The notes under the pieces were generated by a model, which was given only the letters and a program-made list of their open reading frames with translations, had not been told where the DNA came from and did not search any database. DNA of 63,350 bases, counting the filler, from Gemmatimonadota bacterium (GTDB lineage: Bacteria > 4572-55 > J002), in NCBI GenBank assembly GCA_003697105.1. It is 6 parts of 6 records of this genome, joined end to end, with 100 filler letters (N's around TTAATTAATTAA, not from the genome) between each part and the next. Parts side by side here need not be neighbours in the genome. Positions count along the whole stretch, not along the records: positions 48,086 to 53,935 come from RFFQ01000198.1; 5 more parts are not named here. The stretch is one strand, 5' to 3'. A program made the position numbers and the translations under genes. Positions 1,209-60,695 of this stretch are shown here, in pieces (the first letter of the stretch is position 1; the number at the start of each line of letters is the position of its first letter).

Positions 1209-2558
1209 ATGCTCAAGCACTATGCCCTATTATTTATTAGCTTATTTTTAATAAGCACTCCCTTGATCTTCACAGGTTGCAGTGAAGATGAGAATGAAGA
1301 ATTTCCGGCGGCACCCCAAGAAGCGAATGCCGTTTTAACCTCTCACTTTGCTGATTTGGCGGCGGGACAGAGCTATGTTGGATTTCATACCAGTGCCGCC
1401 GCGATCGCAAATGGGAGTTATGCTTCTGATAGTCTAGCGTTGATGTTGACCTTACCCCCATTGGATAATTCGCTGACTTATATGGCATCATTCAAGACAT
1501 ATCCGGGTAGTTCTTATCCGGTATTTTTTGCGTTAGCCGGTTCGGGTAATAATGGGACATTTGTCCTTGCGGATCCTACAAATGCACTTGGTTTTGATAA
1601 TCCATTTGATGTTTATCCCACCTTTCAAATTTTGTTCACCGAAACCGAATGGGCAGAGACGGATACGGCGGCTGTTCTTCCCATAATGCTGGCTTCTTCG
1701 CTCCCGGAACCTATTCTGCCTCATATTCAGCGGTTGTTACGTTCTGAACCCAATCTCCCCGAAGCTCATGGCTTACTTCCATCGATCATGTCTGTTGCGG
1801 ATGGCGTGTTAGGGGCATCACAATTGACGGCTGCGGGGACCACGCTTGAGGAAATTCAAGGGAATGCACTTGTTGTCGGAGGTGCGTTGCAAAATTATGA
1901 GGCTTTGGCGACAGGTGCCGGTCAATTACTAGGGTTATGCGCCGCCTCAACGGCATCTTCTCAAATGATGAAATACTACGCTTCTCAAGCCATCGGCTCA
2001 TTGGAAACTGCCGGTGGACATGCGCAGGCGATAGGTGCCAAAATTCAGGAAATTCAGATGGCAACTGAGTTTGATCAAGCTCAGACCTTAGCCAATGAAT
2101 TGTTGGCGCTTAGCCAAGCTCTTCGGGCAAGTTGTTGGATGGCGTTGACAAATGCTCAGAGTATGGCACACTATCCCGTTGGGAATCCGTTACCAAAAGG
2201 ACAATTGCGGATTACCAATAACGAAATGATCCTGACATTGATTGATATGCCGGTTCTGGGTGAATTTGGGACGAATGATTCTAATCTACCGTATGGATAT
2301 GCTTATGAAGGGCTTCTGGTAAAAGGAAATGAGCACATTCTAATCGGCTATTTTGGACATTTACCCGGACAAACGTCTTCAATGGTTTGGCCCTACCGTT
2401 ACACGACATTTCCACAAGGGTTTGATCAGGTAAAAATTAATTTAGTCCGTTATGACCGGGTCATTGATCCCGAAAGTGGTGATGTGGTATATGATTATGA
2501 ATTAGATAATGATCCGGCTGCGAGCCTGCTTACGGTTATGTCTGGTGCAATTCAATAA
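1209..2558 (+). CDS. Hypothetical lipoprotein (beta domain - helical bundle - beta domain)
   Basis: AAGGAGG RBS; hydrophobic N-terminus ending IFTG-C lipobox, then acidic linker; 449 aa. Confidence 0.8.
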   Translation: MLKHYALLFISLFLISTPLIFTGCSEDENEEFPAAPQEANAVLTSHFADLAAGQSYVGFHTSAAAIANGSYASDSLALMLTLPPLDNSLTYMASFKTYPGSSYPVFFALAGSGNNGTFVLADPTNALGFDNPFDVYPTFQILFTETEWAETDTAAVLPIMLASSLPEPILPHIQRLLRSEPNLPEAHGLLPSIMSVADGVLGASQLTAAGTTLEEIQGNALVVGGALQNYEALATGAGQLLGLCAASTASSQMMKYYASQAIGSLETAGGHAQAIGAKIQEIQMATEFDQAQTLANELLALSQALRASCWMALTNAQSMAHYPVGNPLPKGQLRITNNEMILTLIDMPVLGEFGTNDSNLPYGYAYEGLLVKGNEHILIGYFGHLPGQTSSMVWPYRYTTFPQGFDQVKINLVRYDRVIDPESGDVVYDYELDNDPAASLLTVMSGAIQ

Positions 2559-2584
2559 ATAAAAAATGAAGAAAGGGTAGAAGA

Positions 2585-4192
2585 ATGCAAATATTCCTTA
2601 AACTGACTGGCATCGTGTTCATGAGTCTGTTGGTGTTGACGTTGGTCAACTGTACGGAGGATACTCCAGCTACCGATGAAAATTATCCGAAAACGGCTAC
2701 TATAGAGCCAGACTCTTTGTTGCTTGATGTAGGAGAAGTATCACCGGAATTAATGGCACATCTGTATGATGTCGATGGGAACGAGGTGACCGGTGATTGG
2801 CCCATTTATTGGTCGGTAAACCGTACTCAAGAAGATACGGCTCTGGTAGTTGAGTTGAATAGTGATAGTAATGTGGGGAATCTGAAAACATTTCGAGCGG
2901 TAAATTATGGGCTAGAGCAAATTTATGCTTCTATCGCAAAAAATCCAAACAATTCGGCTATTCGCGGTGAAGTGACCGTCTTGGTTCCCAAAGCGAGTGC
3001 CTCTCTAACAGGCACATGGGGATTATTTGAAGCCACTATTCGTCCCCAAAATTCGTCCGCGTCTGTGCATGATAGTAAACGAATACGCATCGAAATTGCT
3101 GGCAGTTTACCCGCATTAGTGGGAGATGCTTATGTTTACACCGCCTATGTTATTACTGACAATGGGCAAGTAAATGTAGGACCCCTGACACCTAATCCGG
3201 TGAATGAACAAGTCAACATCTCAATCGATTTAGGTTCTGATGTGAATTTTGCCCAAGATGCTACAGGTTTTCGCCTTACCGTTGAACGGGCGGATAATAT
3301 CCCGGCAACGTATCAAGAGGGGACGGGCATTGTCCTATTTGAAGAGTACCTACCGGCACTTGTTCCCGGGGGTGCTCTCGAAATCGTTCGTCAATTGTTA
3401 CACCCCACAGAAGGAAGCGTCGTACAGCTTCGTGATGCTTTAAACCCCATTTTGTATTACAATGCACGTATCAAAAATAGTGTGGGAGATGGTGATTTAG
3501 TTGCAAGTTACGCGGATTCGCTCTCAGATGTGCTCACACCGCTTTCAGAACAGTTTAATCAGGCAGTGCAACTGTTAGAAGACCTCCAAAATGCGGAAGA
3601 CCGGACCGATCTTATGTATAGTAACGCGCTTGTGGCGGATGGATTGTACCGGCGTTCGTTGGATTCCCTAACGGTTGCTACCAGTATTACAGAGGCATTG
3701 CAATCCACCCCGACGGATACATTGCTCATCAATCGTCTGGATGAGGTCACATCTGCCCTAGAAACGAATCTGACAGAGGGTTTCTCGAATGTTCAAACGA
3801 TGTTGACCTTGAGTGGTGTCGGTCATGAGGATTATTCACCGCAAGTACAAATTATTGAAATGACACGGTCTAATCTGAACTATACGGTTTCCAATGTGGA
3901 TTCTATTCCCTATGTTAATAACTCAAATTGGGAGTATGTTCTGTGGCTGGGTAATAACCGGATTCCATCCTATTTGCCGGTACCAAACGGTGATGATTAT
4001 ATTTTAGATACGGGTCATTATGATGGTATTAACACCCGCGAAACCTTTACCGAACCGGGAGAATCGGTTTCGGATTACCCGGATCGTCATCAATTTGTGT
4101 ATGTGACACTCCAACCGGCAACGGATTTGGAAACGTTCACAGGTATTGTTGTTGCCAAGGGTTTCCTGACATACGCGAACATTTCTCAATAA
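2585..4192 (+). CDS. Hypothetical lipoprotein with N-terminal Ig-like domain
   Basis: Signal peptide ending LVN-C; TIEPDSLLLDVGE...L.A.LYD.DGN...WS resembles bacterial Ig-like (Big) repeats; 535 aa. Confidence 0.75.
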   Translation: MQIFLKLTGIVFMSLLVLTLVNCTEDTPATDENYPKTATIEPDSLLLDVGEVSPELMAHLYDVDGNEVTGDWPIYWSVNRTQEDTALVVELNSDSNVGNLKTFRAVNYGLEQIYASIAKNPNNSAIRGEVTVLVPKASASLTGTWGLFEATIRPQNSSASVHDSKRIRIEIAGSLPALVGDAYVYTAYVITDNGQVNVGPLTPNPVNEQVNISIDLGSDVNFAQDATGFRLTVERADNIPATYQEGTGIVLFEEYLPALVPGGALEIVRQLLHPTEGSVVQLRDALNPILYYNARIKNSVGDGDLVASYADSLSDVLTPLSEQFNQAVQLLEDLQNAEDRTDLMYSNALVADGLYRRSLDSLTVATSITEALQSTPTDTLLINRLDEVTSALETNLTEGFSNVQTMLTLSGVGHEDYSPQVQIIEMTRSNLNYTVSNVDSIPYVNNSNWEYVLWLGNNRIPSYLPVPNGDDYILDTGHYDGINTRETFTEPGESVSDYPDRHQFVYVTLQPATDLETFTGIVVAKGFLTYANISQ

Positions 4193-19991: not shown

Positions 19992-20408
19992 TTACAATCC
20001 CATTGCTTGCTTTTTACGTTCCAGCATTTCGTTAATGGCATCGTCATAATAGGTTGTGGATTTGGCGATTGCCGGAGAGACCCGTTGCAAATACAAGCGC
20101 CGTCCCCGCTCAAATTCCCCGCCGAGGAGTTGCTCTAAGTTCCCGTTTCGCAAGCCTTGCTCAATCTTTTGCTGATTGTATAGGGCAATATCAGAGACAA
20201 TCACAGAAGCAAATGATTTGGCTTCATTGTGCTGTTTGCGCAACCCTTCATCCATTTCATCGGTTGGAGGTGCGGCTTGGGGTGCTGGGCTTGGTGCCGG
20301 TTGTGGCGTTGGTGTGGGTTGGGGTGCTGGGCTTGGTGCCGGTTGTGGCGTTGGTGTGGGTTGGGGTGCTGGGCTTGGTGCCGGTTGTGGCGTTGGTGTG
20401 GGTTGGGG
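19992..20408 (-). CDS. Partial gene (5' end lost in gap): Pro-rich linker plus C-terminal helical domain, possibly RomX-like
   Basis: Frame open from gap: (PTPTPQPAPSPAPQ)x3 then A..FA..IVSDIALYN..KI..G...G.L...L..E.E.GR.LY..RV. Confidence 0.7.
   Translation of the reverse strand, partial: PQPTPTPQPAPSPAPQPTPTPQPAPSPAPQPTPTPQPAPSPAPQAAPPTDEMDEGLRKQHNEAKSFASVIVSDIALYNQQKIEQGLRNGNLEQLLGGEFERGRRLYLQRVSPAIAKSTTYYDDAINEMLERKKQAMGL
20277..20408. repeat. 42-bp tandem repeat (3+ perfect copies), coding
   Basis: Unit TTGGGGTGCTGGGCTTGGTGCCGGTTGTGGCGTTGGTGTGGG running into gap. Confidence 0.95.
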
Positions 20409-20508
20409 NNNNNNNNNNNNNNNNNNNNNNNNNNNNNNNNNNNNNNNNNNNNTTAATTAATTAANNNNNNNNNNNNNNNNNNNNNNNNNNNNNNNNNNNN
20501 NNNNNNNN
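20409..20508. other. Artificial contig spacer
   Basis: N44-TTAATTAATTAA-N44; stops in all six frames. Confidence 0.97.
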
Positions 20509-24671: not shown

Positions 24672-24751
24672 AAACGGGAAGCTAGAGGCTAGAAACGGGA
24701 AGCTAGAGGCTAGAAACGGGAAGCTAGAGGCTAGAAACGGGAAGCTAGAGG
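24660..24751. repeat. 21-bp tandem repeat built from three heptamers
   Basis: (GCTAGAG GCTAGAA ACGGGAA)x4+, includes hypD stop, runs into gap. Confidence 0.95.
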
Positions 24752-24851
24752 NNNNNNNNNNNNNNNNNNNNNNNNNNNNNNNNNNNNNNNNNNNNTTAAT
24801 TAATTAANNNNNNNNNNNNNNNNNNNNNNNNNNNNNNNNNNNNNNNNNNNN
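24752..24851. other. Artificial contig spacer
   Basis: N44-TTAATTAATTAA-N44. Confidence 0.97.
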
Positions 24852-47985: not shown

Positions 47986-48085
47986 NNNNNNNNNNNNNNN
48001 NNNNNNNNNNNNNNNNNNNNNNNNNNNNNTTAATTAATTAANNNNNNNNNNNNNNNNNNNNNNNNNNNNNNNNNNNNNNNNNNNN
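47986..48085. other. Artificial contig spacer
   Basis: N44-TTAATTAATTAA-N44. Confidence 0.97.
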
Positions 48086-48295
48086 AAGGTAAAATCACCC
48101 GGCACTTCTTTCTCATGGGGCGGCAAAAGTTGCTCATCACCAACGCCGTGCAACGATTCCGCATCCAAAATAACATCGACGACGGTGCCTTTGAGAAAAT
48201 GAACGCCTTTATCAATTTTAAAGCATGAGTTTTCCAGAGTTTTCAGAGAAAGTAGAAGAAAGTGGACTTTTTTTCAAGTTTTGTCGTGTACTATG
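48086..48295 (+). mobile_element. Possible right end of an insertion sequence (ORF tail 48088-48228 plus terminal repeat-like TTTTGTCGTGTACTATG)
   Basis: Open frame from contig edge to TGA 48228; terminus resembles IS4-family ends as recalled, not verified. Confidence 0.35.
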
Positions 48296-48418
48296 CCGGG
48301 CGCTTTATACAGAAGAAACACGAAACATCATCGCTAAAAGATTTGAAAAAGATATTGATATGTTTCACTATACGTTTTAAGCGATAAGCGGAGTATTGCT
48401 GGGTTACATGAATAAAAC

Positions 48419-48475: not shown

Positions 48476-48814
48476 TCAACCAAAACTCTTGATCGCGTCC
48501 TCTTCGTTGGTAAAATTTTCAAAGACGGTAATCAGTTGGGTCACGGTAAGGAGATGTTCAATGCGCTTGGTGGCATTTAACAATTTTAGTTCACCTCCCG
48601 CATTTCGCATACTGGTTAAACAGGAGATCAAGCTACCCAACCCACTACTATTGATCCGGGGGACACCTCCCAAGTCAATCAACACTTTACGTTGTCCTTC
48701 TGCGATCAATTCTTTAATTTTATCTTGGAGTTTAACTGCATCTGGACCACCGACCAGCTCGCCTTTGAGTTCCACAACGATGACACCGTGTGCATAACGG
48801 GTATTAATTTTCAT
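48476..48814 (-). CDS. STAS anti-sigma factor antagonist
   Basis: L.GEL.GG, V..INSSGLG.L, GGELKL, L.VTQL..VF; AGGAGG RBS. Confidence 0.92.
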   Translation of the reverse strand: MKINTRYAHGVIVVELKGELVGGPDAVKLQDKIKELIAEGQRKVLIDLGGVPRINSSGLGSLISCLTSMRNAGGELKLLNATKRIEHLLTVTQLITVFENFTNEEDAIKSFG

Positions 48815-48849
48815 CTTATCCTCCTGAGATGATGAGTAAATGTATCAAG

Positions 48850-50532
48850 TTAAGAAAACGCTTTGGCAATTTCATCAAGTGTGGTGATACCCCGCGCAAA
48901 TTTTAGTAAGGCATCTTCTTTTATCGGTCGCATGCCTTCTTTGATGGCTTCCATCCGAATTTCATGCGAAGGTGCGCCTTGGATCATCATATCGGCAATT
49001 CTAGGGCTGACCGGCATGACCTCAAACACGGGTTGTCGCCAGCGATAGCCGGTGTGATAGCAACGGTCACATCCTTTCCCGACATAATAGGTTCGTCCGG
49101 CTAATTTCTGGGGGTCAATGCCAAACCGGACAAACCGGTCTTCTTCAATCTCAGTTGGTGTTTTGCAATGTTCGCAAATTTTACGAACAGACGCCTGAGT
49201 GACGACACATTTCAAAGTTTCGGCGAGTAATCGGATATCTATTTCTCGATTCATCAATTGTGTAAGTGCGTCTTCTGTTCCGTGCGAACCCACCAGCCCG
49301 TATACCCGGCAACGGGTGGCGAGATGCGTGGCAATGCCCAAAATCGCCGTGTCGGAGAGATCACTAATCCCAATCACATCTAAATCTTCATCCTGCAAAA
49401 ATTGTAATGCCGTTGGTAAACTCAATGCCCCTTTGATATTCACTTCCACTTGATTGACCCCTTCCATATAATACTCAATGGGGTCTTCAATACTCACCAC
49501 ATTTTGGTGTTCGGTATTTGCGGTGTTGAGAATGGAATAATAGGTGCGCATTTTTTCGGTTTTATGGGGTCCGGCAAACACAATTAAGCCATAGTGCCCA
49601 CTAATTGCTTTGGAAAGGTCACTAAACGCTTTCCGTTGCAAACCCAATTGGCTAATATCAAGACTTAAGTCATTCTGATTCCAGATTTTAATCAGGATTT
49701 TATCACCATACAAGGTAGGGTAAATTTGAGCCATCATGCGTACCGGATGGTCGTTTATGGTAGCCGAAATTTGGCTTATTTTGGGTTGGCGACGGGCGGC
49801 CCGATCAAATTTAAACAGATTTTCCAGTCGGGATTGGATTTCGGTTCGCATTCGGATGGGCGGGCTGGCTTCCTCATGCAAAACACCGTCAATGCGAAAC
49901 CGAATCCGGATTTTGCGCTCAAAGGGTTCAATATGGATAGCACTTGCTCCTTTCAGAATCGCATCTAAAATCACGGAATTGAGGAGGGTTGCGGCGGGTG
50001 GATCATCGGGGGCATGTCCCCCTGCGGACGTATCGGATAAGGGGTCTTGGACAATCACTTCTACGTTCCCACCGGTGGTGACGGGCAGTTTGCCCAAAGC
50101 GTCCGAAGTGGGGTAGTACTGCATCAGGGCTTGGTCGATGGCGGTTTCCGAAGCCACAAGCGTATGAATATCAAAACCGGTACGGAATCGAATATCATCA
50201 ATTGCGATCATGTCTGTGGGGTCAGACATCGCTACCGTCAATCCCTTTTTCCCTTCTCGTCCAATGGGTATCACCTTATATTTATAAGCCATATCCGAAG
50301 AAATCAGATTTAATGTACTCTGATCGATGGAGACGCTCCCGAGGTCAATTCGCGCAATGCCCAATTGGCGGCTGATCCCCGTTAACAATTGGTCTTCGGT
50401 CAGGTAGTTCATCGCCACCAAATGACTACCTAATTTACCACCATGTTTTTTCTGTGCGGTTAGGGCTTGTTTGAGTTGAGCCTCCGTGATCAAGCCTTCC
50501 GCGAGCAACATTTCGCCCAATCTGCGAGCCAT
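48850..50532 (-). CDS. PilB/GspE-family protein with MshEN domain and degenerate ATPase site
   Basis: RLGEMLLAEGLITEAQLKQAL..Q; IHIEP, RFRIDGVL, EDPIEY, C..C/C..C retained; Walker A reads GPHKTEK. Confidence 0.88.
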   Translation of the reverse strand: MARRLGEMLLAEGLITEAQLKQALTAQKKHGGKLGSHLVAMNYLTEDQLLTGISRQLGIARIDLGSVSIDQSTLNLISSDMAYKYKVIPIGREGKKGLTVAMSDPTDMIAIDDIRFRTGFDIHTLVASETAIDQALMQYYPTSDALGKLPVTTGGNVEVIVQDPLSDTSAGGHAPDDPPAATLLNSVILDAILKGASAIHIEPFERKIRIRFRIDGVLHEEASPPIRMRTEIQSRLENLFKFDRAARRQPKISQISATINDHPVRMMAQIYPTLYGDKILIKIWNQNDLSLDISQLGLQRKAFSDLSKAISGHYGLIVFAGPHKTEKMRTYYSILNTANTEHQNVVSIEDPIEYYMEGVNQVEVNIKGALSLPTALQFLQDEDLDVIGISDLSDTAILGIATHLATRCRVYGLVGSHGTEDALTQLMNREIDIRLLAETLKCVVTQASVRKICEHCKTPTEIEEDRFVRFGIDPQKLAGRTYYVGKGCDRCYHTGYRWRQPVFEVMPVSPRIADMMIQGAPSHEIRMEAIKEGMRPIKEDALLKFARGITTLDEIAKAFS

Positions 50533-50728
50533 GTCTCCTCCAAACTGATGAAGCCATCGCCATTTAAGGATTTAATTTTCACAAGTTTACTACATGCTCT
50601 CAAGGATTGTCAAGCAATTTCCTTGTACCACACAGGACGGCGCATAACCGGAAAACTTCTTGACAAATTTGACGTCGTCCGGTAGGATCATTTAACTATT
50701 TTTTATCTGAAATAGTTGGGAGTTTATC

Positions 50729-50881
50729 ATGTTCACAACATTTGCTAAATACATACTGCTGGCAATGGTCATTCTGGTGATTGTGGGACTTATCGCGAAG
50801 ACCTTCAAACTGGCACTGGGTTTCGCACTGGGTTGCTTGCTGATCGCCGGAGTACTCTACCTACTCGATAAAATTTTATAA
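50729..50881 (+). CDS. Small 2-TM membrane protein (50 aa; absent from ORF track)
   Basis: TTGACA-17-TAGGAT promoter, GGGAG RBS; MFTTFAKYILLAMVILVIVGLIAKTFKLALGFALGCLLIAGVLYLLDKIL. Confidence 0.7.
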   Translation: MFTTFAKYILLAMVILVIVGLIAKTFKLALGFALGCLLIAGVLYLLDKIL

Positions 50882-50985
50882 CCTGCTGGTATTTCCCACG
50901 AAAGAGTTGACGCATCCCTCCTATTTGTGATATACTTATTTTTGCCGGGAAAATAAGTCGAATATCATCTTAGAAGGTTGTTACT

Positions 50986-51744
50986 ATGATTAAAGTAAAA
51001 TCTATTTATTTGAATAATCATCCGGCAACGATAATTCAAACAAGTCAGGATGAACCGCCACACCGGATCGTCCAAAAGCTTGATATACCATCGCCCCGGG
51101 CGGTGCTTGTCCTCAATGGGGGAACAGCTAAACTGGATGAGAACTTGCAGGAACATCTCCGTCGATTGCTCCAAGAGGGTGTTGCCAAATACGTTGCGGA
51201 ACACGGTGTTGTAGTGGTCACCGGTGCTACCGATGCCGGCATTTTTTCAATATTTGGTGAGGGATTACACCGTTACAACGTTCAAACCCCCTGTATTGGC
51301 GTAGCCGTAAAAGCATTGGTCACCTGGAAAGGTCGCCTGCCCCGATGGTTACCCCACCAGTGGCTGGACAACGGGCGCGAACCCTTAGAACCCCACCATA
51401 CCCATTTTGTACTGGTGGATGGTAAGAACTGGGGCGACGAAACGGAAATGATGTACCGTCTGGTACAAGAACTCTCCCAAAATTGCCCCTCATTGGCAAT
51501 TTTTGCTGGCGGCGGCACCATTACCCTCGGTGAAATGGAACTCAATGTCAGCCAACAACGACAGATGATTTTGATCGAAGGTAGTGGACGCACCACCGAT
51601 TCGGTGGTCGAGGAACATTCGGGAATCTCAACGGTAAATCCGCGCTTTACCAACATCGCCAAAAAAGGTCGAATATCGATATTTTCATTGCAGGATAATC
51701 CAGAAAAATTGGAACAGATGATTCATCACCTGCTGTTTTCATAG
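50986..51744 (+). CDS. Stand-alone SLOG domain protein, TRPM-like (LSDAT) family
   Basis: VL.GG, VTGATDAGI, IGVA, LEPHHTHFVLVDG..WGDE, GGG, IEGSGR.TD. Confidence 0.85.
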   Translation: MIKVKSIYLNNHPATIIQTSQDEPPHRIVQKLDIPSPRAVLVLNGGTAKLDENLQEHLRRLLQEGVAKYVAEHGVVVVTGATDAGIFSIFGEGLHRYNVQTPCIGVAVKALVTWKGRLPRWLPHQWLDNGREPLEPHHTHFVLVDGKNWGDETEMMYRLVQELSQNCPSLAIFAGGGTITLGEMELNVSQQRQMILIEGSGRTTDSVVEEHSGISTVNPRFTNIAKKGRISIFSLQDNPEKLEQMIHHLLFS

Positions 51745-51765
51745 TGGGTTAGGAGGTTCACCGGC

Positions 51766-53784
51766 ATGCTTGAAAAATGGAAGGGGATACTCAACACAGA
51801 TTTAAAACAGGTAATGGCAAAAAATGATCCAGCAGTGACCCCCGGTGAACTACCAGAGTCCGAAGAGCATTCCAACCCAGAAAAAGCCAGCCCAGATCAT
51901 CCCGAGGCAACGATCATTACATTCCCCAACGGCAACCAAGCTCGCTTGACCACCACTCCAATTGGTCGTGATCCGCAGGAAATCCTAGATGAATTGGGAA
52001 TTAAGCCCCCGAAAGCGCTCATTTATAGTGTGGGCGGAACCTCTGGGTTAGATGACCGTCTCCACGCTCGGTTACAGCAATTATACAGTCGGGCAATCGC
52101 CCGCACTGCCGCAGAGGTGGAAGCAATTACCGTCGATGGGGCAACAGAAGCTGGCGTTATCCAACTAATGGGGCAAGGCGTGGCAGACCGGGGTCGTAAA
52201 TCAATTTTGCTCGGCGTTGCCCCGATTTCAAAAGCAACCTATCCGGGAGATCCGCATCGCGCTGAAAAAGAAGAGTGTTACCCACTCGATCCCAATCACA
52301 CCCATTTTGTGCTGGTGGAATCCGAAAATAACGATTGGGGCAACGAAACCTCAACAATGTGCGCCTTGTTGGAAGCACTCGGAAGCAATTCTATCAGTGC
52401 CGTGACCATCCTAGCAAATGGGGGTGAAGTCGCTAAAAGTGAAGTGCTTTACAGTGTGCGGCATGGCTGGCCCGTGATCATCATTGAAGGGAGTGGACGG
52501 GCAGCGGATGAAATCCTGAAACTATGGTATGAAAAACCAGACCGCATTGATGACCCCATACTTTCCGAAATTATCGAAGAGGGTATTATCCATCCCTACC
52601 ATATTGATGATCCCATCAATGGTATGGAACGCCTGATCAAACGCCTCTTACAAGAAGACGTTATCCTAAAAACCGCTTGGGAATGGTTTGCCGTTTATGA
52701 TAAAAATGCCATCCTAAAACAGACCGAATACAAACGGCGCCAAAAACAAATTTTGCAGTTAGGGGTTATCGGGACGGGATTAGCCATCATCAAAAACCTA
52801 TATGAAACATCGATTCAGGCGGCTTTGGGAAATTTCCTAACAAACCCCATCATTGAGACCCTCTACCTCTCCCTCGATAATATGCTCTACGTGATTATTC
52901 TAGCCGTGCCGATCTTGTTGACGATGCTTTCCGACAAGCAAAACAAGCGAAACGCCGGTATGAAACAACTCTATTTGCGTGCAAGTGCGGAAATGCTCAA
53001 ACGGGACATCTACTCCTATCGTGCCAAAGCGGGAGCATACGGGGTAGAAGAACTGGAGGGCACCAGTCCCGAAGCCAAATTACAGGAAAAATTGGATCAC
53101 ATTAGTACCCAATTAGCGCAATCTGATGTGATGACATCCGCACTAGAGCCACATGAGGGTCCCATCCCCCCACAGTATGGTGCGGCACCCGGCGATGATG
53201 GATTTAGCTACCTGACACAGGAAAAATATGTTCAATTCCGTTTGCAAGACCAACTGGACTATTACAAGAAAAAAACCCTTAAATTAGAAAAACAAAAGGA
53301 GCGATTGCACAACTTAATCCTGATCTTTGGCGGCATCGGAACATTACTAGCCGCGATTGGCTTGCAAATTTGGATTGCCCTAACCACTGCTCTGGTCACC
53401 GCATTTACAACGATGCTGGAATACGAAAAGGTCGAGGAAAATCTGCAAAAATTCAACCGTGCCGCCATTGAGTTAGCAAATGTCAAAAGTTGGTGGAACT
53501 CACTCTCACCGGAACAACAAGCCCGCCCGAAAAACATTGATCTGCTCATCAACCGGACAGAAGATATTCTGGAAGGCGAATTCCGCCAGTGGTTCCAACA
53601 AATGCAACAAGCGGTTGAAGAACAGGCAGAAGAAACCAGTGAAGCCACCGGTCTGGAACGGGAGAATAAAACCAAACCCATCCTCGAGTTTTTGGGAACG
53701 GAAAATCCCAAAACGGAAGACTCCGCCTCGCCAAAACAGACTGCCAACACCGCCACTACTTCCAAACCAGTACCCCCTGATTGA
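51766..53784 (+). CDS. TRPM-like SLOG domain fused to two SLATT (DUF4231-like) 2-TM domains
   Basis: VDGAT.AG, LDPNHTHFVLV, WG.E, NGG, IEGSGRAAD; then two TM hairpins, R.SAE.LK...Y.Y and Y...RL.DQL.YY..K. Confidence 0.85.
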   Translation: MLEKWKGILNTDLKQVMAKNDPAVTPGELPESEEHSNPEKASPDHPEATIITFPNGNQARLTTTPIGRDPQEILDELGIKPPKALIYSVGGTSGLDDRLHARLQQLYSRAIARTAAEVEAITVDGATEAGVIQLMGQGVADRGRKSILLGVAPISKATYPGDPHRAEKEECYPLDPNHTHFVLVESENNDWGNETSTMCALLEALGSNSISAVTILANGGEVAKSEVLYSVRHGWPVIIIEGSGRAADEILKLWYEKPDRIDDPILSEIIEEGIIHPYHIDDPINGMERLIKRLLQEDVILKTAWEWFAVYDKNAILKQTEYKRRQKQILQLGVIGTGLAIIKNLYETSIQAALGNFLTNPIIETLYLSLDNMLYVIILAVPILLTMLSDKQNKRNAGMKQLYLRASAEMLKRDIYSYRAKAGAYGVEELEGTSPEAKLQEKLDHISTQLAQSDVMTSALEPHEGPIPPQYGAAPGDDGFSYLTQEKYVQFRLQDQLDYYKKKTLKLEKQKERLHNLILIFGGIGTLLAAIGLQIWIALTTALVTAFTTMLEYEKVEENLQKFNRAAIELANVKSWWNSLSPEQQARPKNIDLLINRTEDILEGEFRQWFQQMQQAVEEQAEETSEATGLERENKTKPILEFLGTENPKTEDSASPKQTANTATTSKPVPPD

Positions 53785-53935
53785 CTGACAAAAGCTATTT
53801 AACTCATTTATTATCAACAAAAAAGTTGCGCTTTGATTTGATTTGGTTTAGATTTTTCCATCTCAATTTACTTGACCCCTCATTCGTGGAGTAGCGATGG
53901 AAACATTGACCCTTTACCGAGCCGTTTTAAGAATA

Positions 53936-54035
53936 NNNNNNNNNNNNNNNNNNNNNNNNNNNNNNNNNNNNNNNNNNNNTTAATTAATTAANNNNNNNNN
54001 NNNNNNNNNNNNNNNNNNNNNNNNNNNNNNNNNNN
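53936..54035. other. Artificial contig spacer
   Basis: N44-TTAATTAATTAA-N44. Confidence 0.97.
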
Positions 54036-54091
54036 ACAAACTCATAAACTCACAAACTCATAAACTCACAAACTCATAAACTCACAAACTC
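54036..54091. repeat. Octamer tandem repeat (AYAAACTC)x7 abutting a start codon
   Basis: Alternating ACAAACTC/ATAAACTC from contig edge to ATG 54092. Confidence 0.95.
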
Positions 54092-55375
54092 ATGGGAACA
54101 TATTTTCTACGCCGTATTTTGCTGATGATTCCGACCTTTTTCGGGTCAACCATTTTGGTGTTTGTGATTTTACAACTGGCACCGGGGGGTCCCTTGGAGC
54201 AGACCATTCAACGCATCCAAGCAGGAGCGGCTCAACAAGGCGAAGCGGGTGGCGGGTCTTCCACCGAGTTAGTCGGGGGTGGCGTGATTACCAAATCCGC
54301 AATGGAAGAATTGAAGCGGTTTTATGGTTTCGATAAGCCGGTTCATATCCGCTATTTGATGTGGCTGGGGGTTTGGCCCCGCGAGACCGAACATCGCAAT
54401 GTCATCTTTCAACCGGAAGAAACGGAAGTCCGCAAAAGCATTGGCGGCGGAAAATTTGTGTGGGTGAAAAAAGAGGGTGAATCGCAGTTCGGAGTGTACC
54501 ATGAGGATGGTACCCCCCATACCGGGTGGTTTGCCCGGCGTGAGACCGCAAACACAGACACCAACCCGACAGACGAAACCATCAAAGTGACCATTTTCCG
54601 CCGCGAATTTTCGGGAATTCTGACCGGTAATCTGGGTAAATCCTACACGTACATGCAACCGGTAACCGACGTGATGAAACCGCGCTTTAAGGTTTCCATC
54701 TTTTTTGGATTAAGTGGTTTTTTCATTGCCTACTTGGTTTGTATCCCATTGGGGATCGCCAAAGCATTGCGGCACGGTTCTACCTTCGATTTGATGTCCA
54801 GTATGATCGTATTTGTCGGGTATTCTGTCCCCGGGTGGGCACTGGGCGCGGTCTTGCTGATGTTATTGGGAGGCGGGTCGTTCTGGGATATTTTCCCACT
54901 GGGGGGGTTTCGCTCCGAAGGGTGGGAATATATGTCGCTGGCAGGTAAGATCATCGACCAGCTCCACCACGCGATACTGCCCCTAATTGCCTGGACTATC
55001 GGCGGCTTTGCAACCCTCACCGTACTCATGAAAAACAGTATTTTAGAGAACATTTCACAAGATTACGTGCGTACCGCATTCGCTAAAGGACTTTCAGAAA
55101 AACGGGTTATCTGGCTCCATACCTTGCGAAATTCTGTGATCCCGCTGGCATCGTTCATCGGACATTCCATCGGGATTTTAATTGCCGGTTCGTATTTAAT
55201 CGAGGTAGCATTTAATATCGATGGCTTCGGCAAAATGAGTTTTCAGGCAATTTTAGACCGGGATTACCCGATTGTCATGGGCTTTTTAGTGATTGTGGTC
55301 TTGCTGCGCCTCGTGGGAAATATTCTCTCGGATATAGCACTGGCAACGGTCGATCCCCGGATTCGATTTAAGTAA
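54092..55375 (+). CDS. Peptide ABC transporter permease (OppB/YejB-like)
   Basis: Y.LRR.LL.IPT, APGGP, YGFDKP..RY, DYVRTA.AKGL EAA loop, DPRI. Confidence 0.93.
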   Translation: MGTYFLRRILLMIPTFFGSTILVFVILQLAPGGPLEQTIQRIQAGAAQQGEAGGGSSTELVGGGVITKSAMEELKRFYGFDKPVHIRYLMWLGVWPRETEHRNVIFQPEETEVRKSIGGGKFVWVKKEGESQFGVYHEDGTPHTGWFARRETANTDTNPTDETIKVTIFRREFSGILTGNLGKSYTYMQPVTDVMKPRFKVSIFFGLSGFFIAYLVCIPLGIAKALRHGSTFDLMSSMIVFVGYSVPGWALGAVLLMLLGGGSFWDIFPLGGFRSEGWEYMSLAGKIIDQLHHAILPLIAWTIGGFATLTVLMKNSILENISQDYVRTAFAKGLSEKRVIWLHTLRNSVIPLASFIGHSIGILIAGSYLIEVAFNIDGFGKMSFQAILDRDYPIVMGFLVIVVLLRLVGNILSDIALATVDPRIRFK

Positions 55376-59141: not shown

Positions 59142-59241
59142 NNNNNNNNNNNNNNNNNNNNNNNNNNNNNNNNNNNNNNNNNNNNTTAATTAATTAANNN
59201 NNNNNNNNNNNNNNNNNNNNNNNNNNNNNNNNNNNNNNNNN
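59142..59241. other. Artificial contig spacer
   Basis: N44-TTAATTAATTAA-N44. Confidence 0.97.
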
Positions 59242-60695
59242 CGCCGCGCATAAATTAACGAGACATCATCAAAATAGACCAATGCCCAATCTGGATGCGG
59301 CGCTAAGTAACTGTGAATAAAGGATTCTTCGCGCCCATACCAATCCGCCGCCGGTGTACGCAGTACAAAATAATCAATACGATAGGTGTCAATGAGGGCT
59401 TCGAACCCCTCCAGCCGGCGCATAATGGTGCGGTAATCCTGAAAAAGGTCTTCTCCGAACACATCATTCCGCCCATCGATGAAAATCAATCGATCCGGGT
59501 AGAGCGACCAAATCAAGTAACCCCCAAAACTGAAGTGGTTGAACAGATTCCCTTGCAGATTCGCCTGCCGGATAAACTGGACTGCCCCGGTGGGTGTCCA
59601 GTTTTCGACCCCTAATTTCACCTGCCGGCTGGTATAGCGGTCCATTTTCAATCCAAATTTGAGGGTGTACAGGACAAAACCCATTCCGATCAGCACCACG
59701 GCCAGATGGAACAGTCTCCATATCCGCTGTGGAATACGATCCGGTTGGAACCCAGTAAACAGACCGGCAAAAACCGGCACCGTGACCACCGCGAATAACA
59801 CCCGGTTACGGCTGGCGAGGATCGTCCCCACCGTAAACAAAATCACCAGTAAAATCGAGGTTATATCCCATATTTTATGCCGTAACCCTCGCCACAAAAT
59901 TGCTCCAACCGTGAGAACCAGCACCAGATGGAAATAGAAAACAAAGGTAGCAGTGGCGTGAATGGGATGGTACGGCGACTGCAACTCCGTGATAACATTT
60001 TTGAAGGTTGGGTTGGTGACCAACCAAAAGGGATAGAAAACAGCGTGGTAGGTGTTGGGGTTCAGCAAGGAAGCGGCATAACTGATCAGGATGATCAACG
60101 CCAAACGGCGGTCCCATTTGCGATGTAGCACCCCTTCCACAACCGCAAATACCGTGGCGATACCCAACCCAAAGATAAAGCCGGAGTGAATATTAGCCCA
60201 CAACACCGTGATGACCGGCAACGCCGGTAGCCAATTTTTGCCAAAATCACGGTAGTTGTATAAAATGAGCAGGAATACCGCGGTAAACAGAAAGGTAAAC
60301 AGTTGCGGGCGTTCCGAAAACCTGCCGGTACTCAATAAGCCCAGCAACAAGAGGAACAGCACCGTGAACGCGGTGGGCACCTGGCGTTGTTCACAAAAGA
60401 TCAACAGCACCAAAAAGAAGCAACAAACCAAAATCGCTTTTGCTACAATCACCCCCTCCAGACCACCAATCGCATAAACCCCGTATGCCAGCGCCTCAAA
60501 CAACCATTCGTGGGTGATCCAGCGATTACCATAAGCGGTATATGAAAAAATATCGGTAGTGGGGATCGTCCGGTGCTGAACAATATATTCACCGGTTTTC
60601 AGATGCCACCAACTATCAGAATCTCCGATGGGGAAAATCGAGAGGGATAAGCTAATAGCGAGTAAAACGAGGAATAGCAGGGACTTCAAGTTCAT
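59242..60695 (-). CDS. Polytopic membrane protein, GT-C-like (3' truncated by gap)
   Basis: D.D.WWHL..G, HEWL, RP, LWAN.H.GF, NP, GGYLIW, FIDGR.D. Confidence 0.7.

Follow-up and report, generated by a model that had tools for sequence, protein, structure and literature searches.

A TRPM-type SLOG–SLATT fusion and an adjoining stand-alone SLOG gene in a Gemmatimonadota genome: a candidate Thoeris-like membrane effector

We analysed a 63,350-nt stretch of DNA (the window) from a Gemmatimonadota bacterium (GenBank assembly GCA_003697105.1) and focused on two adjacent genes, referred to here as gene A and gene B, both of which encode SLOG domains homologous to the N-terminal MHR1/2 region of eukaryotic TRPM channels. 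Gene A encodes a soluble, stand-alone SLOG protein of 252 amino acids, and gene B a protein of 672 amino acids in which the SLOG domain is followed by two predicted membrane units, DUF4231 and SLATT_1. We propose that gene B is a Thoeris-like membrane effector gated by a signal derived from nicotinamide adenine dinucleotide (NAD), and that gene A is a co-transcribed SLOG protein that tunes it, a reading to which, taken as a whole, we assign a probability of about 0.52. Its two halves differ in strength: gene B probably acts as a ligand-gated membrane effector of the TIR/SLOG/SLATT type, and the role suggested for gene A, that of a co-sensor or buffer for the same class of ligand that modulates B, is tentative. 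Gene B is best read as a Thoeris-like effector because about a third of its relatives adjoin a TIR gene and because a TIR-SLOG-SLATT fusion exists.

The two genes lie on the plus strand, gene A at 50986..51744 and gene B at 51766..53784, and are separated by a 21-nt spacer (51745..51765) in which an AGGAGG motif (51751-51756) stands 9 nt ahead of the gene B ATG. A consensus scan found a promoter-like site 50 nt ahead of gene A (50907..50936, plus strand; TTGACG, 18 nt, TATACT, with TG), which is a pattern match alone, at 10 of 12 positions, and a pattern scan of the plus strand found no terminator-like site between the genes. Given the short, operon-like gap, the AGGAGG motif and the lack of such a site between them, co-transcription of A and B is plausible. 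Their GC content, overall and at third codon positions (GC3), is alike (0.48 and 0.49), and their composition agrees with that of the rest of the genome bin.

Both proteins were recognised by the Pfam profile LSDAT_prok (PF18171; cut-off 25.4), with 162.7 bits for gene A (domain at residues 38-241) and 147.7 bits for gene B (residues 49-295; 51910..52650, plus strand), and they scored 52.3 and 54.9 bits, respectively, against LSDAT_euk. Aligned with each other over 250 residues, the two SLOG domains show 32% identity (E = 1e-35), and they share a set of motifs, namely TGATDAG in A and DGATEAG in B, LEPHHTHFVLV and LDPNHTHFVLV, WGDE and WGNE, and IEGSGRTTD and IEGSGRAAD. These paralogous motifs had all been quoted in a first-pass annotation of the DNA, which had also placed the two open reading frames (ORFs) and their spacing exactly as found here, and which described the first gene as soluble; a Kyte-Doolittle scan indeed found no hydrophobic segment in gene A.

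In gene B the SLOG domain precedes two two-transmembrane (2-TM) units, both on the plus strand. The first, DUF4231 (residues 313-426; 52702..53043), comprises a helical hairpin at residues 299-357/361-395 with a hydrophobic stretch at 365-391, its first helix falling under the threshold used in our hydropathy scan, and the second, SLATT_1 (residues 488-609; 53227..53592), comprises a hairpin at 485-530/536-579 with a hydrophobic stretch at 514-551. SLATT_1 (PF18181) scored 80.3 bits in Pfam (cut-off 26.3) and 76.3 bits in NCBIfam (cut-off 41), and all three profiles, DUF4231 marginally, passed their Pfam cut-offs. An AlphaFold2 (AF2) model of gene B, built on an alignment of 26 relatives and having a mean predicted local distance difference test score (pLDDT) of 80.7, showed an alpha/beta domain at residues 49-295 and then two long helical hairpins, with pLDDT below 50 at residues 19-45 and 647-672. 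The latter stretch belongs to a C-terminal tail (residues 630-672; 53653..53784, plus strand) that is variable among relatives and probably disordered, and the two SLATT-like units and disordered tail attributed earlier to this gene were thereby borne out. No TRP-type six-helix pore domain was found in gene B, Pfam giving DUF4231 and SLATT_1 after the SLOG domain and the model two hairpins. As far as its sequence tells, gene B joins a domain of the signal-binding type and a putative killing module of two SLATT units in one protein.

The SLOG domains of A and B are homologous to TRPM MHR1/2 by sequence as well as by fold. A profile of the gene A family run against PDB sequences gave 50 matches, all of them TRPM channels (the best being human TRPM2, E = 3e-12), and when the gene B model was searched with Foldseek, the 50 best matches were likewise all TRPM chains (e.g., 6pkx_A, 9mtc_A and 8sib), with about 300 columns aligned to TRPM2, TRPM4 and TRPM7 at a root-mean-square deviation of 4-5 Å; the TRPM relationship named in the first-pass annotation is thus confirmed on both counts. 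In human TRPM2 (PMC6759353), ADP-ribose (ADPR) bound to MHR1/2 is clamped by Y295, while its phosphates contact R358 and its ribose contacts R302. We mapped these positions from TRPM2 to gene A by family-profile alignment and from gene A to gene B by pairwise alignment. Y295 corresponded to the invariant Trp of the WG.E motif (W149 in A, W191 in B) and R358 to the Arg of the GSGR motif (R202 in A, R245 in B), and so two of the three contacts, the aromatic clamp and the phosphate arginine, are kept in both proteins. Because these Trp and Arg contacts are kept, an adenine-nucleotide pocket is plausible in A as well as in B. Outside the homologous ligand-binding domain, gene B differs from TRPM channels in lacking the TRP six-helix channel, MHR3/4 and NUDT9-H, its membrane part consisting of two SLATT hairpins; it is analogous to TRPM channels in its logic without being one.

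More than 120 full-length relatives of gene B, 31-52% identical to it, have the same three domains. Their usual annotation is DUF4231 or SLATT domain protein, and one source labels them 'TRPM family ion channel/conflict system pore-forming effector with SLATT domain'. Among 1.84 billion cluster representatives scanned, 2,914, 1,571 and 455 proteins matched at E <= 1e-3, 1e-10 and 1e-30, respectively. When genomes were taken as one per species, 266 of 280 pattern matches encoded a gene B relative, and the best 80 of these 266, which we examined, came from Chloroflexota, Pyrinomonadaceae and other Acidobacteriota, Beggiatoa, Thioploca, Thiomargarita, Verrucomicrobiota, Myxococcota, Brocadia, Actinomycetota, a cyanobacterium and one Nitrosocosmicus archaeon. 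In three phyla sampled at 401 genomes each, PF18171 exceeded its cut-off in 13, 4 and 2 genomes (19 positive among 1,203); the family is populous but sporadic. Two plasmids carry a relative, one of the copies amid toxin-antitoxin genes and an integrase, and phage records contained none. Some relatives carry further domains: P0411 unites TIR_2, LSDAT_prok, DUF4231 and SLATT_1 in a single protein, P0324 combines nSTAND1 with the same three domains, and a TIR-SLOG fusion is present at locus L105. One protein of 1,405 amino acids (P0404) contains the entire SLOG-SLATT arrangement twice in tandem. Thermotoga maritima was the sole one of 14 control genomes with PF18171 above cut-off.

To quantify the association with TIR genes, we used 160 loci, made up of 80 from genomes (the best of the 266 matches) and 80 from metagenomes (the best of 338 matches obtained via the gene A family). 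Profiles for F-type SLOG (the fused form, as in gene B), S-type SLOG (as in gene A), the SLATT pair and TIR, the last built from six Pfam-confirmed TIR_2 stretches, were run over all ORFs of these loci. A TIR ORF lay within 3 kb in 21 of 70 fused (F-type) loci, or in 13 of 42 when the count was confined to loci flanked on each side by 3 kb or more; the corresponding figures for S-type non-fused loci were 18 of 68 and 7 of 16. Within 3 kb of SLOG genes there were 46 TIR ORFs in 649 kb and beyond that distance 6 in 622 kb, that is, 7.1 versus 0.97 per 100 kb, an enrichment of about 7-fold. Near fused genes, 18 of 23 TIR ORFs were downstream on the same strand. The TIR ORFs were corroborated by Pfam TIR_2 or PADLOC ThsB-type matches, and many of them were giants of the TIR_2-(NB-ARC)-WD40 type according to Pfam. 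PADLOC, applied to 130 of 135 immediate neighbours (three very long ORFs and two SLOG-gene pieces were dropped), gave some match for 25 and none for 105, with TIR-type matches in 12 proteins at 10 loci. The genes linked to the family include TIR, STAND, WD40 and patatin genes, and fusions join it to TIR and nSTAND1; the earlier placing of it in NAD/ADPR-type conflict signalling gains support from the TIR density and the four-domain fusion. At one of these loci, in a Nitrosocosmicus metagenome-assembled genome (L048, 3487-12908), two giant TIR proteins of 1,151 and 1,117 amino acids, one with TPR repeats, are encoded after the fused gene. A DAO-family flavin adenine dinucleotide (FAD) oxidoreductase adjoins the SLOG gene at eight loci, mostly of Pyrinomonadaceae (L021, L023, L030, L031, L036, L037 and L065, upstream; L074, downstream), which may reflect shared ancestry rather than function.

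At the pair itself, no TIR was found anywhere in the window by a six-frame search with the TIR profile at E <= 10, nor by Pfam in 51 window ORFs. The first-pass annotation had been right that no TIR, cyclase or sirtuin is encoded alongside; the weight it placed on this does not hold, since the contig stops 151 nt after gene B, just where relatives keep their TIR gene, and the result is not decisive.

The proteins of the gene A family are 240-255 amino acids long and 39-53% identical, and gene A retains every residue that is invariant in its clade. We placed both genes in a FastTree phylogeny, rooted at the midpoint, of 154 distinct SLOG domains that each scored 150 bits or more and spanned at least 170 residues, with identical sequences merged. 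Gene A fell in clade S (67 leaves, support 0.998), an old branch of its own that comprises 52 solo proteins, 14 proteins with a single additional domain and 1 fusion to TIR but no three-domain fusion, and gene B in clade F (87 leaves, support 0.889), with 70 fused, 16 solo and 1 other. Judged by these sequences, A and B are not a recent duplication, because they sit in deeply separate clades and are 32% identical. A separate SLATT gene lay within 3 kb at 17 of 68 S-type loci, and at 8 of the 16 with full flanks. S-type proteins occur in modular arrangements: three-gene operons of solo SLOG, DUF4231 and SLATT_1 (L128, L129, L106, L125); solo SLOG with a DUF4231-SLATT_1 gene (L107, L073); TIR with SLOG-DUF4231 and SLATT_1 (L119-L121); solo SLOG with DUF4231 and TIR (L101); solo SLOG with NUDIX, 8xMP and a deoxyribosyltransferase-like ORF (L092); solo SLOG with 8xMP and a TIR-NB-ARC-WD40 protein (L071); and solo SLOG with TPR-S and patatin (L077, L078, L083, L087). 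The simplest reading is that S-type SLOG is a stand-alone module serving effectors encoded in trans. Gene A belongs to the same clade as the SLOG genes of these loci, whose effectors have no SLOG of their own, whereas the effector encoded by gene B carries one.

In the mechanism we propose, the cytoplasmic TRPM-type SLOG of gene B would bind a small adenine-nucleotide signal, most likely an ADPR derivative that a TIR-domain protein produces from NAD+. On binding, the two 2-TM SLATT units would come together and permeabilise the membrane, and the cell would stop or die. Gene A would most likely bind the same class of ligand, acting either as a co-sensor subunit or as a buffer that sets the activation threshold. 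The ligand, the pore, the role in defence and any interaction of A with B are all what we infer. A prediction of an A-B complex scored 0.01 against a mark of 0.32, gave no answer and carries no weight either way.

This scheme borrows from known and predicted systems. In ThsA of type I Thoeris, a SIR2-SLOG protein, the SLOG domain senses 3' cyclic ADPR (3'cADPR). TIR/SLOG/SLATT nucleotide-signalling conflict systems were reportedly predicted by Burroughs et al. in 2015; gene B has the same architecture and the TIR linkage was reproduced in our analysis. What sets the present locus apart is the additional S-type solo SLOG gene immediately upstream and the lack of a visible TIR on its short contig. 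What is new is the S-plus-F double SLOG within the predicted kind, although the 2015 prediction may already list it. Type VII Thoeris, consisting of a TIR protein and the SLATT effector ThsH with cyclic ADPR (cADPR) as signal, protects against phage (bioRxiv 10.64898/2025.12.03.692087), and in Shaseng, also a TIR and SLATT system, immunity is lost once the TIR protein is inactivated (bioRxiv 10.1101/2024.12.27.630466). By analogy, the shared logic would be that TIR makes an ADPR-derived signal, SLOG senses it (ThsA) and SLATT executes (ThsH, Shaseng), gene B having the sensor kind of type I Thoeris and the effector kind of type VII in one protein. There are differences as well: the ThsH and Shaseng SLATT proteins are without a SLOG whereas gene B has one, the SLOG domain of the present locus belongs to the TRPM (LSDAT) clade, two SLOG proteins are encoded with no TIR in view, and no PADLOC Thoeris model fits either gene.

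The pairing of A with B is rare. None of the 80 genome loci had a second SLOG gene in its 8-kb flanks (at two loci, apparent pairs were pieces of one broken gene), and the tandem was absent from the 19 PF18171-positive genomes among the 1,203, where the two matches in one genome (G350) were halves of one gene. Two strong SLOG ORFs occurred in only 1 of the 160 loci (L114), where an F-type stump is followed by an S-type solo gene and then by two soluble ORFs (2107-3428) that match nothing in Pfam; the N-termini of these two ORFs (CFVIMPFG... and CFVIIPS...) may resemble TIR-like or deoxyribosyltransferase-like proteins. We rejected this locus as a true parallel, its F-type ORF being a 221-aa stump without SLATT. 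With 1 partial parallel in 160 loci, the two-gene form is not a recurrent system. The best-scoring gene B relative, P0279, has two SLOG domains ahead of DUF4231-SLATT_1 and is the only one of 303 family proteins to do so. Two SLOGs per SLATT effector therefore have a precedent; the S-plus-F gene pair has none. At the GSGR position (R358 of TRPM2), one SLOG copy of P0279 has His and the other Asn (the copies span residues 136-328 and 455-670).

Several findings weigh against the proposal. The third ADPR contact, R302 of TRPM2, is Met in both A and B and is thus not conserved, and DUF4231 (PF14015) in gene B is marginal, at 25.0 bits versus a cut-off of 24.7. No TIR ORF lies within 3 kb in 49 of the 70 fused loci (29 of the 42 with full flanks), and the two plasmid copies also stand without TIR; because of these loci and plasmid copies, the effector may act alone or answer another signal. 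PADLOC, which the first-pass annotation had named as a check, recognised neither protein at E <= 1. P0279 was considered as a fusion of gene A with gene B and rejected, since both of its SLOG domains score as F-type and not as S plus F. The A-B pairing is nearly unique, and so a conserved neighbourhood gives the functional link between them no backing. Finally, full-text literature searches found no experimental study of LSDAT-type SLOG-SLATT proteins, in agreement with the first-pass annotation, and no ligand, pore, toxicity or phage test of the family; the main text of a preprint on TIR systems does not contain TRPM, DUF4231, PF18171 or WD40, and its supplementary gene tables may include the family.

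Among the alternatives, the one that best survives, unlikely as we consider it, is that the two genes are neighbours by chance: A and B would belong to two systems, or A would be the orphan of an S-type SLOG and SLATT operon, with partners off the contig. It draws on the rarity just described, the tandem being seen in 1 of 160 loci and there as a remnant, on the deep separation and 32% identity of the two proteins, on the shortness of a 5.85-kb contig with both ends multi-copy, and on the general observation that conflict genes of separate systems commonly cluster. The layout of the locus speaks for a functional unit instead: both genes are on one strand and 21 nt apart, B is preceded by a strong ribosome-binding site, and the gap contains no terminator-like site. 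Their GC and GC3 are also alike, and the contig holds no separate SLATT, 8xMP or patatin gene with which A might otherwise have worked.

Another alternative, which is distinctly unlikely, is close to the first-pass annotation in making gene A the producer or processor of the signal. Gene A would then be a catalytic SLOG, resembling LOG-type N-glycosidases or TIR domains, that acts on NAD+ or ADPR and gates B without a TIR. The SLOG superfamily does include enzymes that cleave N-glycosidic bonds, and SLOG, DrHyd and TIR-fold domains are predicted to generate second messengers in conflict systems, according to two papers (PMC9503650, PMC7159879). Moreover, gene A keeps every clade-invariant residue, and solo S-type SLOGs occur beside TPR-S and patatin with no TIR visible at the four loci named above, where a maker is otherwise missing. 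Yet clade S adjoins TIR in 18 of 68 loci (7 of 16 with full flanks), where a maker is already at hand; A and B have the same pocket motifs, suggesting the same kind of activity for both; and the TRPM-type SLOG figures solely as a ligand-binding domain in PMC6759353 and PMC13143021. At the pair itself, the absence of TIR is not establishable on a contig that ends 151 nt past gene B. The claim that the solo SLOG makes the signal is thus unsupported: the co-occurrence of clade S with TIR and with SLATT genes in trans is at least equally compatible with a sensor or an adaptor. The specific version of this alternative, in which the pair is independent of TIR, the S-type SLOG makes or remodels an ADPR-type ligand and the F-type SLOG of gene B reads it and opens a SLATT pore, is more doubtful still. 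If true, a catalytic gene A would be the first enzyme of the TRPM-type SLOG clade, and the pair would be a prototype, in bacteria, of how an MHR1/2-like domain gates in response to a ligand.

A role outside conflict, with gene B a physiological nucleotide-gated channel (responding, e.g., to NAD/ADPR stress metabolites) and gene A its regulatory subunit, has in its favour that TRPM2 is itself a physiological ADPR-gated channel (PMC6759353), that 105 of 130 scanned neighbours of fused genes lack a PADLOC match and that composition agrees with the rest of the bin, but it is very improbable in view of the sporadic distribution of the family in the three sampled phyla (13/401, 4/401 and 2/401 genomes), its linkage to TIR, STAND, WD40 and patatin, its fusions to TIR and nSTAND1, and the plasmid copy amid toxin-antitoxin genes and an integrase.

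Under the preferred reading of gene B as a Thoeris-like effector, the SLOG-SLATT family joins a bacterial counterpart of the ADPR-binding MHR1/2 of TRPM with a likely effector class of TIR-based immunity. The interest rests on the family more than on the locus, for which the rare double-SLOG arrangement alone is specific. Gene A, being soluble and 252 amino acids long, and gene B, a compact fusion, would be useful reagents for asking what nucleotide is bound by a TRPM-type SLOG, how a SLATT assembly is opened by it, and whether a second SLOG contributes a threshold, a second input or catalysis.

As to the setting of the pair, the window consists of six contigs joined by five artificial linkers (N44-TTAATTAATTAA-N44, at 20409-20508, 24752-24851, 47986-48085, 53936-54035 and 59142-59241), and the order across linkers is arbitrary; ORFs that touch a linker (e.g., 59190-60695) are partly artefacts. 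Genes A and B are carried by the contig at 48086-53935, of 5,850 nt, and because the linkers join separate contigs, window genes off this contig are uninformative on their neighbourhood. The argument that the first-pass annotation drew from context fails for this reason. A housekeeping or oriC setting (dnaN, recF, gyrB; ValRS, sucC; ABC transporters) was dropped, those genes being on other contigs, and the peptide ABC transporter that seems to come right after gene B is likewise on another contig. The GyrB encoded on one of those contigs is no more than 69% identical to any named protein (Longimicrobiales/Gemmatimonadota, Zixibacteria), its best matches among unnamed proteins reaching 82% and 72%.

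The full content of the 5,850-nt contig is a STAS gene, an MshEN/T2SSE ATPase gene, a 50-codon ORF, gene A and gene B. The STAS-domain gene and the MshEN and T2SSE (PilB/GspE-like) ATPase gene (48476-50532, minus strand) diverge from the SLOG pair and are absent from the conserved neighbours of the relatives' loci. The 50-codon ORF (50729-50881, plus strand) lies between the ATPase gene and gene A, is very hydrophobic, has no Pfam match and is preceded by a putative promoter-like site of its own, a pattern match at 50660-50688. An Rfam search of the contig found nothing at E <= 0.1.

To examine the contig ends, contigs of two hot springs metagenome runs (X1 and X2, of one study) were mapped onto the 5,850-nt contig. 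Its unique part had a depth of 23-32 in these runs. The 5' end (48086..48296) is multi-copy, with a depth of 144-194 at 48086-48280 and alternative junctions at 48247 and 48293-48296. The 3' end is multi-copy from the stop codon of gene B (53777..53935), with a depth of about 122 at 53741-53935 and other junctions at 53776/53777, and a 1,322-nt Logan contig starts at 53777, 7 bases before the end of gene B, and extends 1,163 nt beyond the contig end. It follows that a repeat present in roughly 4-5 copies begins at the gene B stop codon, and that this repeat interrupted the assembly. Neither multi-copy end resembles the other or any further part of the window, and a composite-transposon reading of the two is therefore unsupported. 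The loose end at 53777 shows GTTAGGG-like repeats. Several contigs of the window begin or end in short tandem repeats (20350-20408, 24700-24751 and 54036-54095; GGTGTGGGTTGGGG-like, GAAACGGGAAGCTAGAGGCTA-like and ACAAACTCATAAACTC-like), and such contig-end repeats may be a regular feature of the organism's intergenic regions, at which assemblies break.

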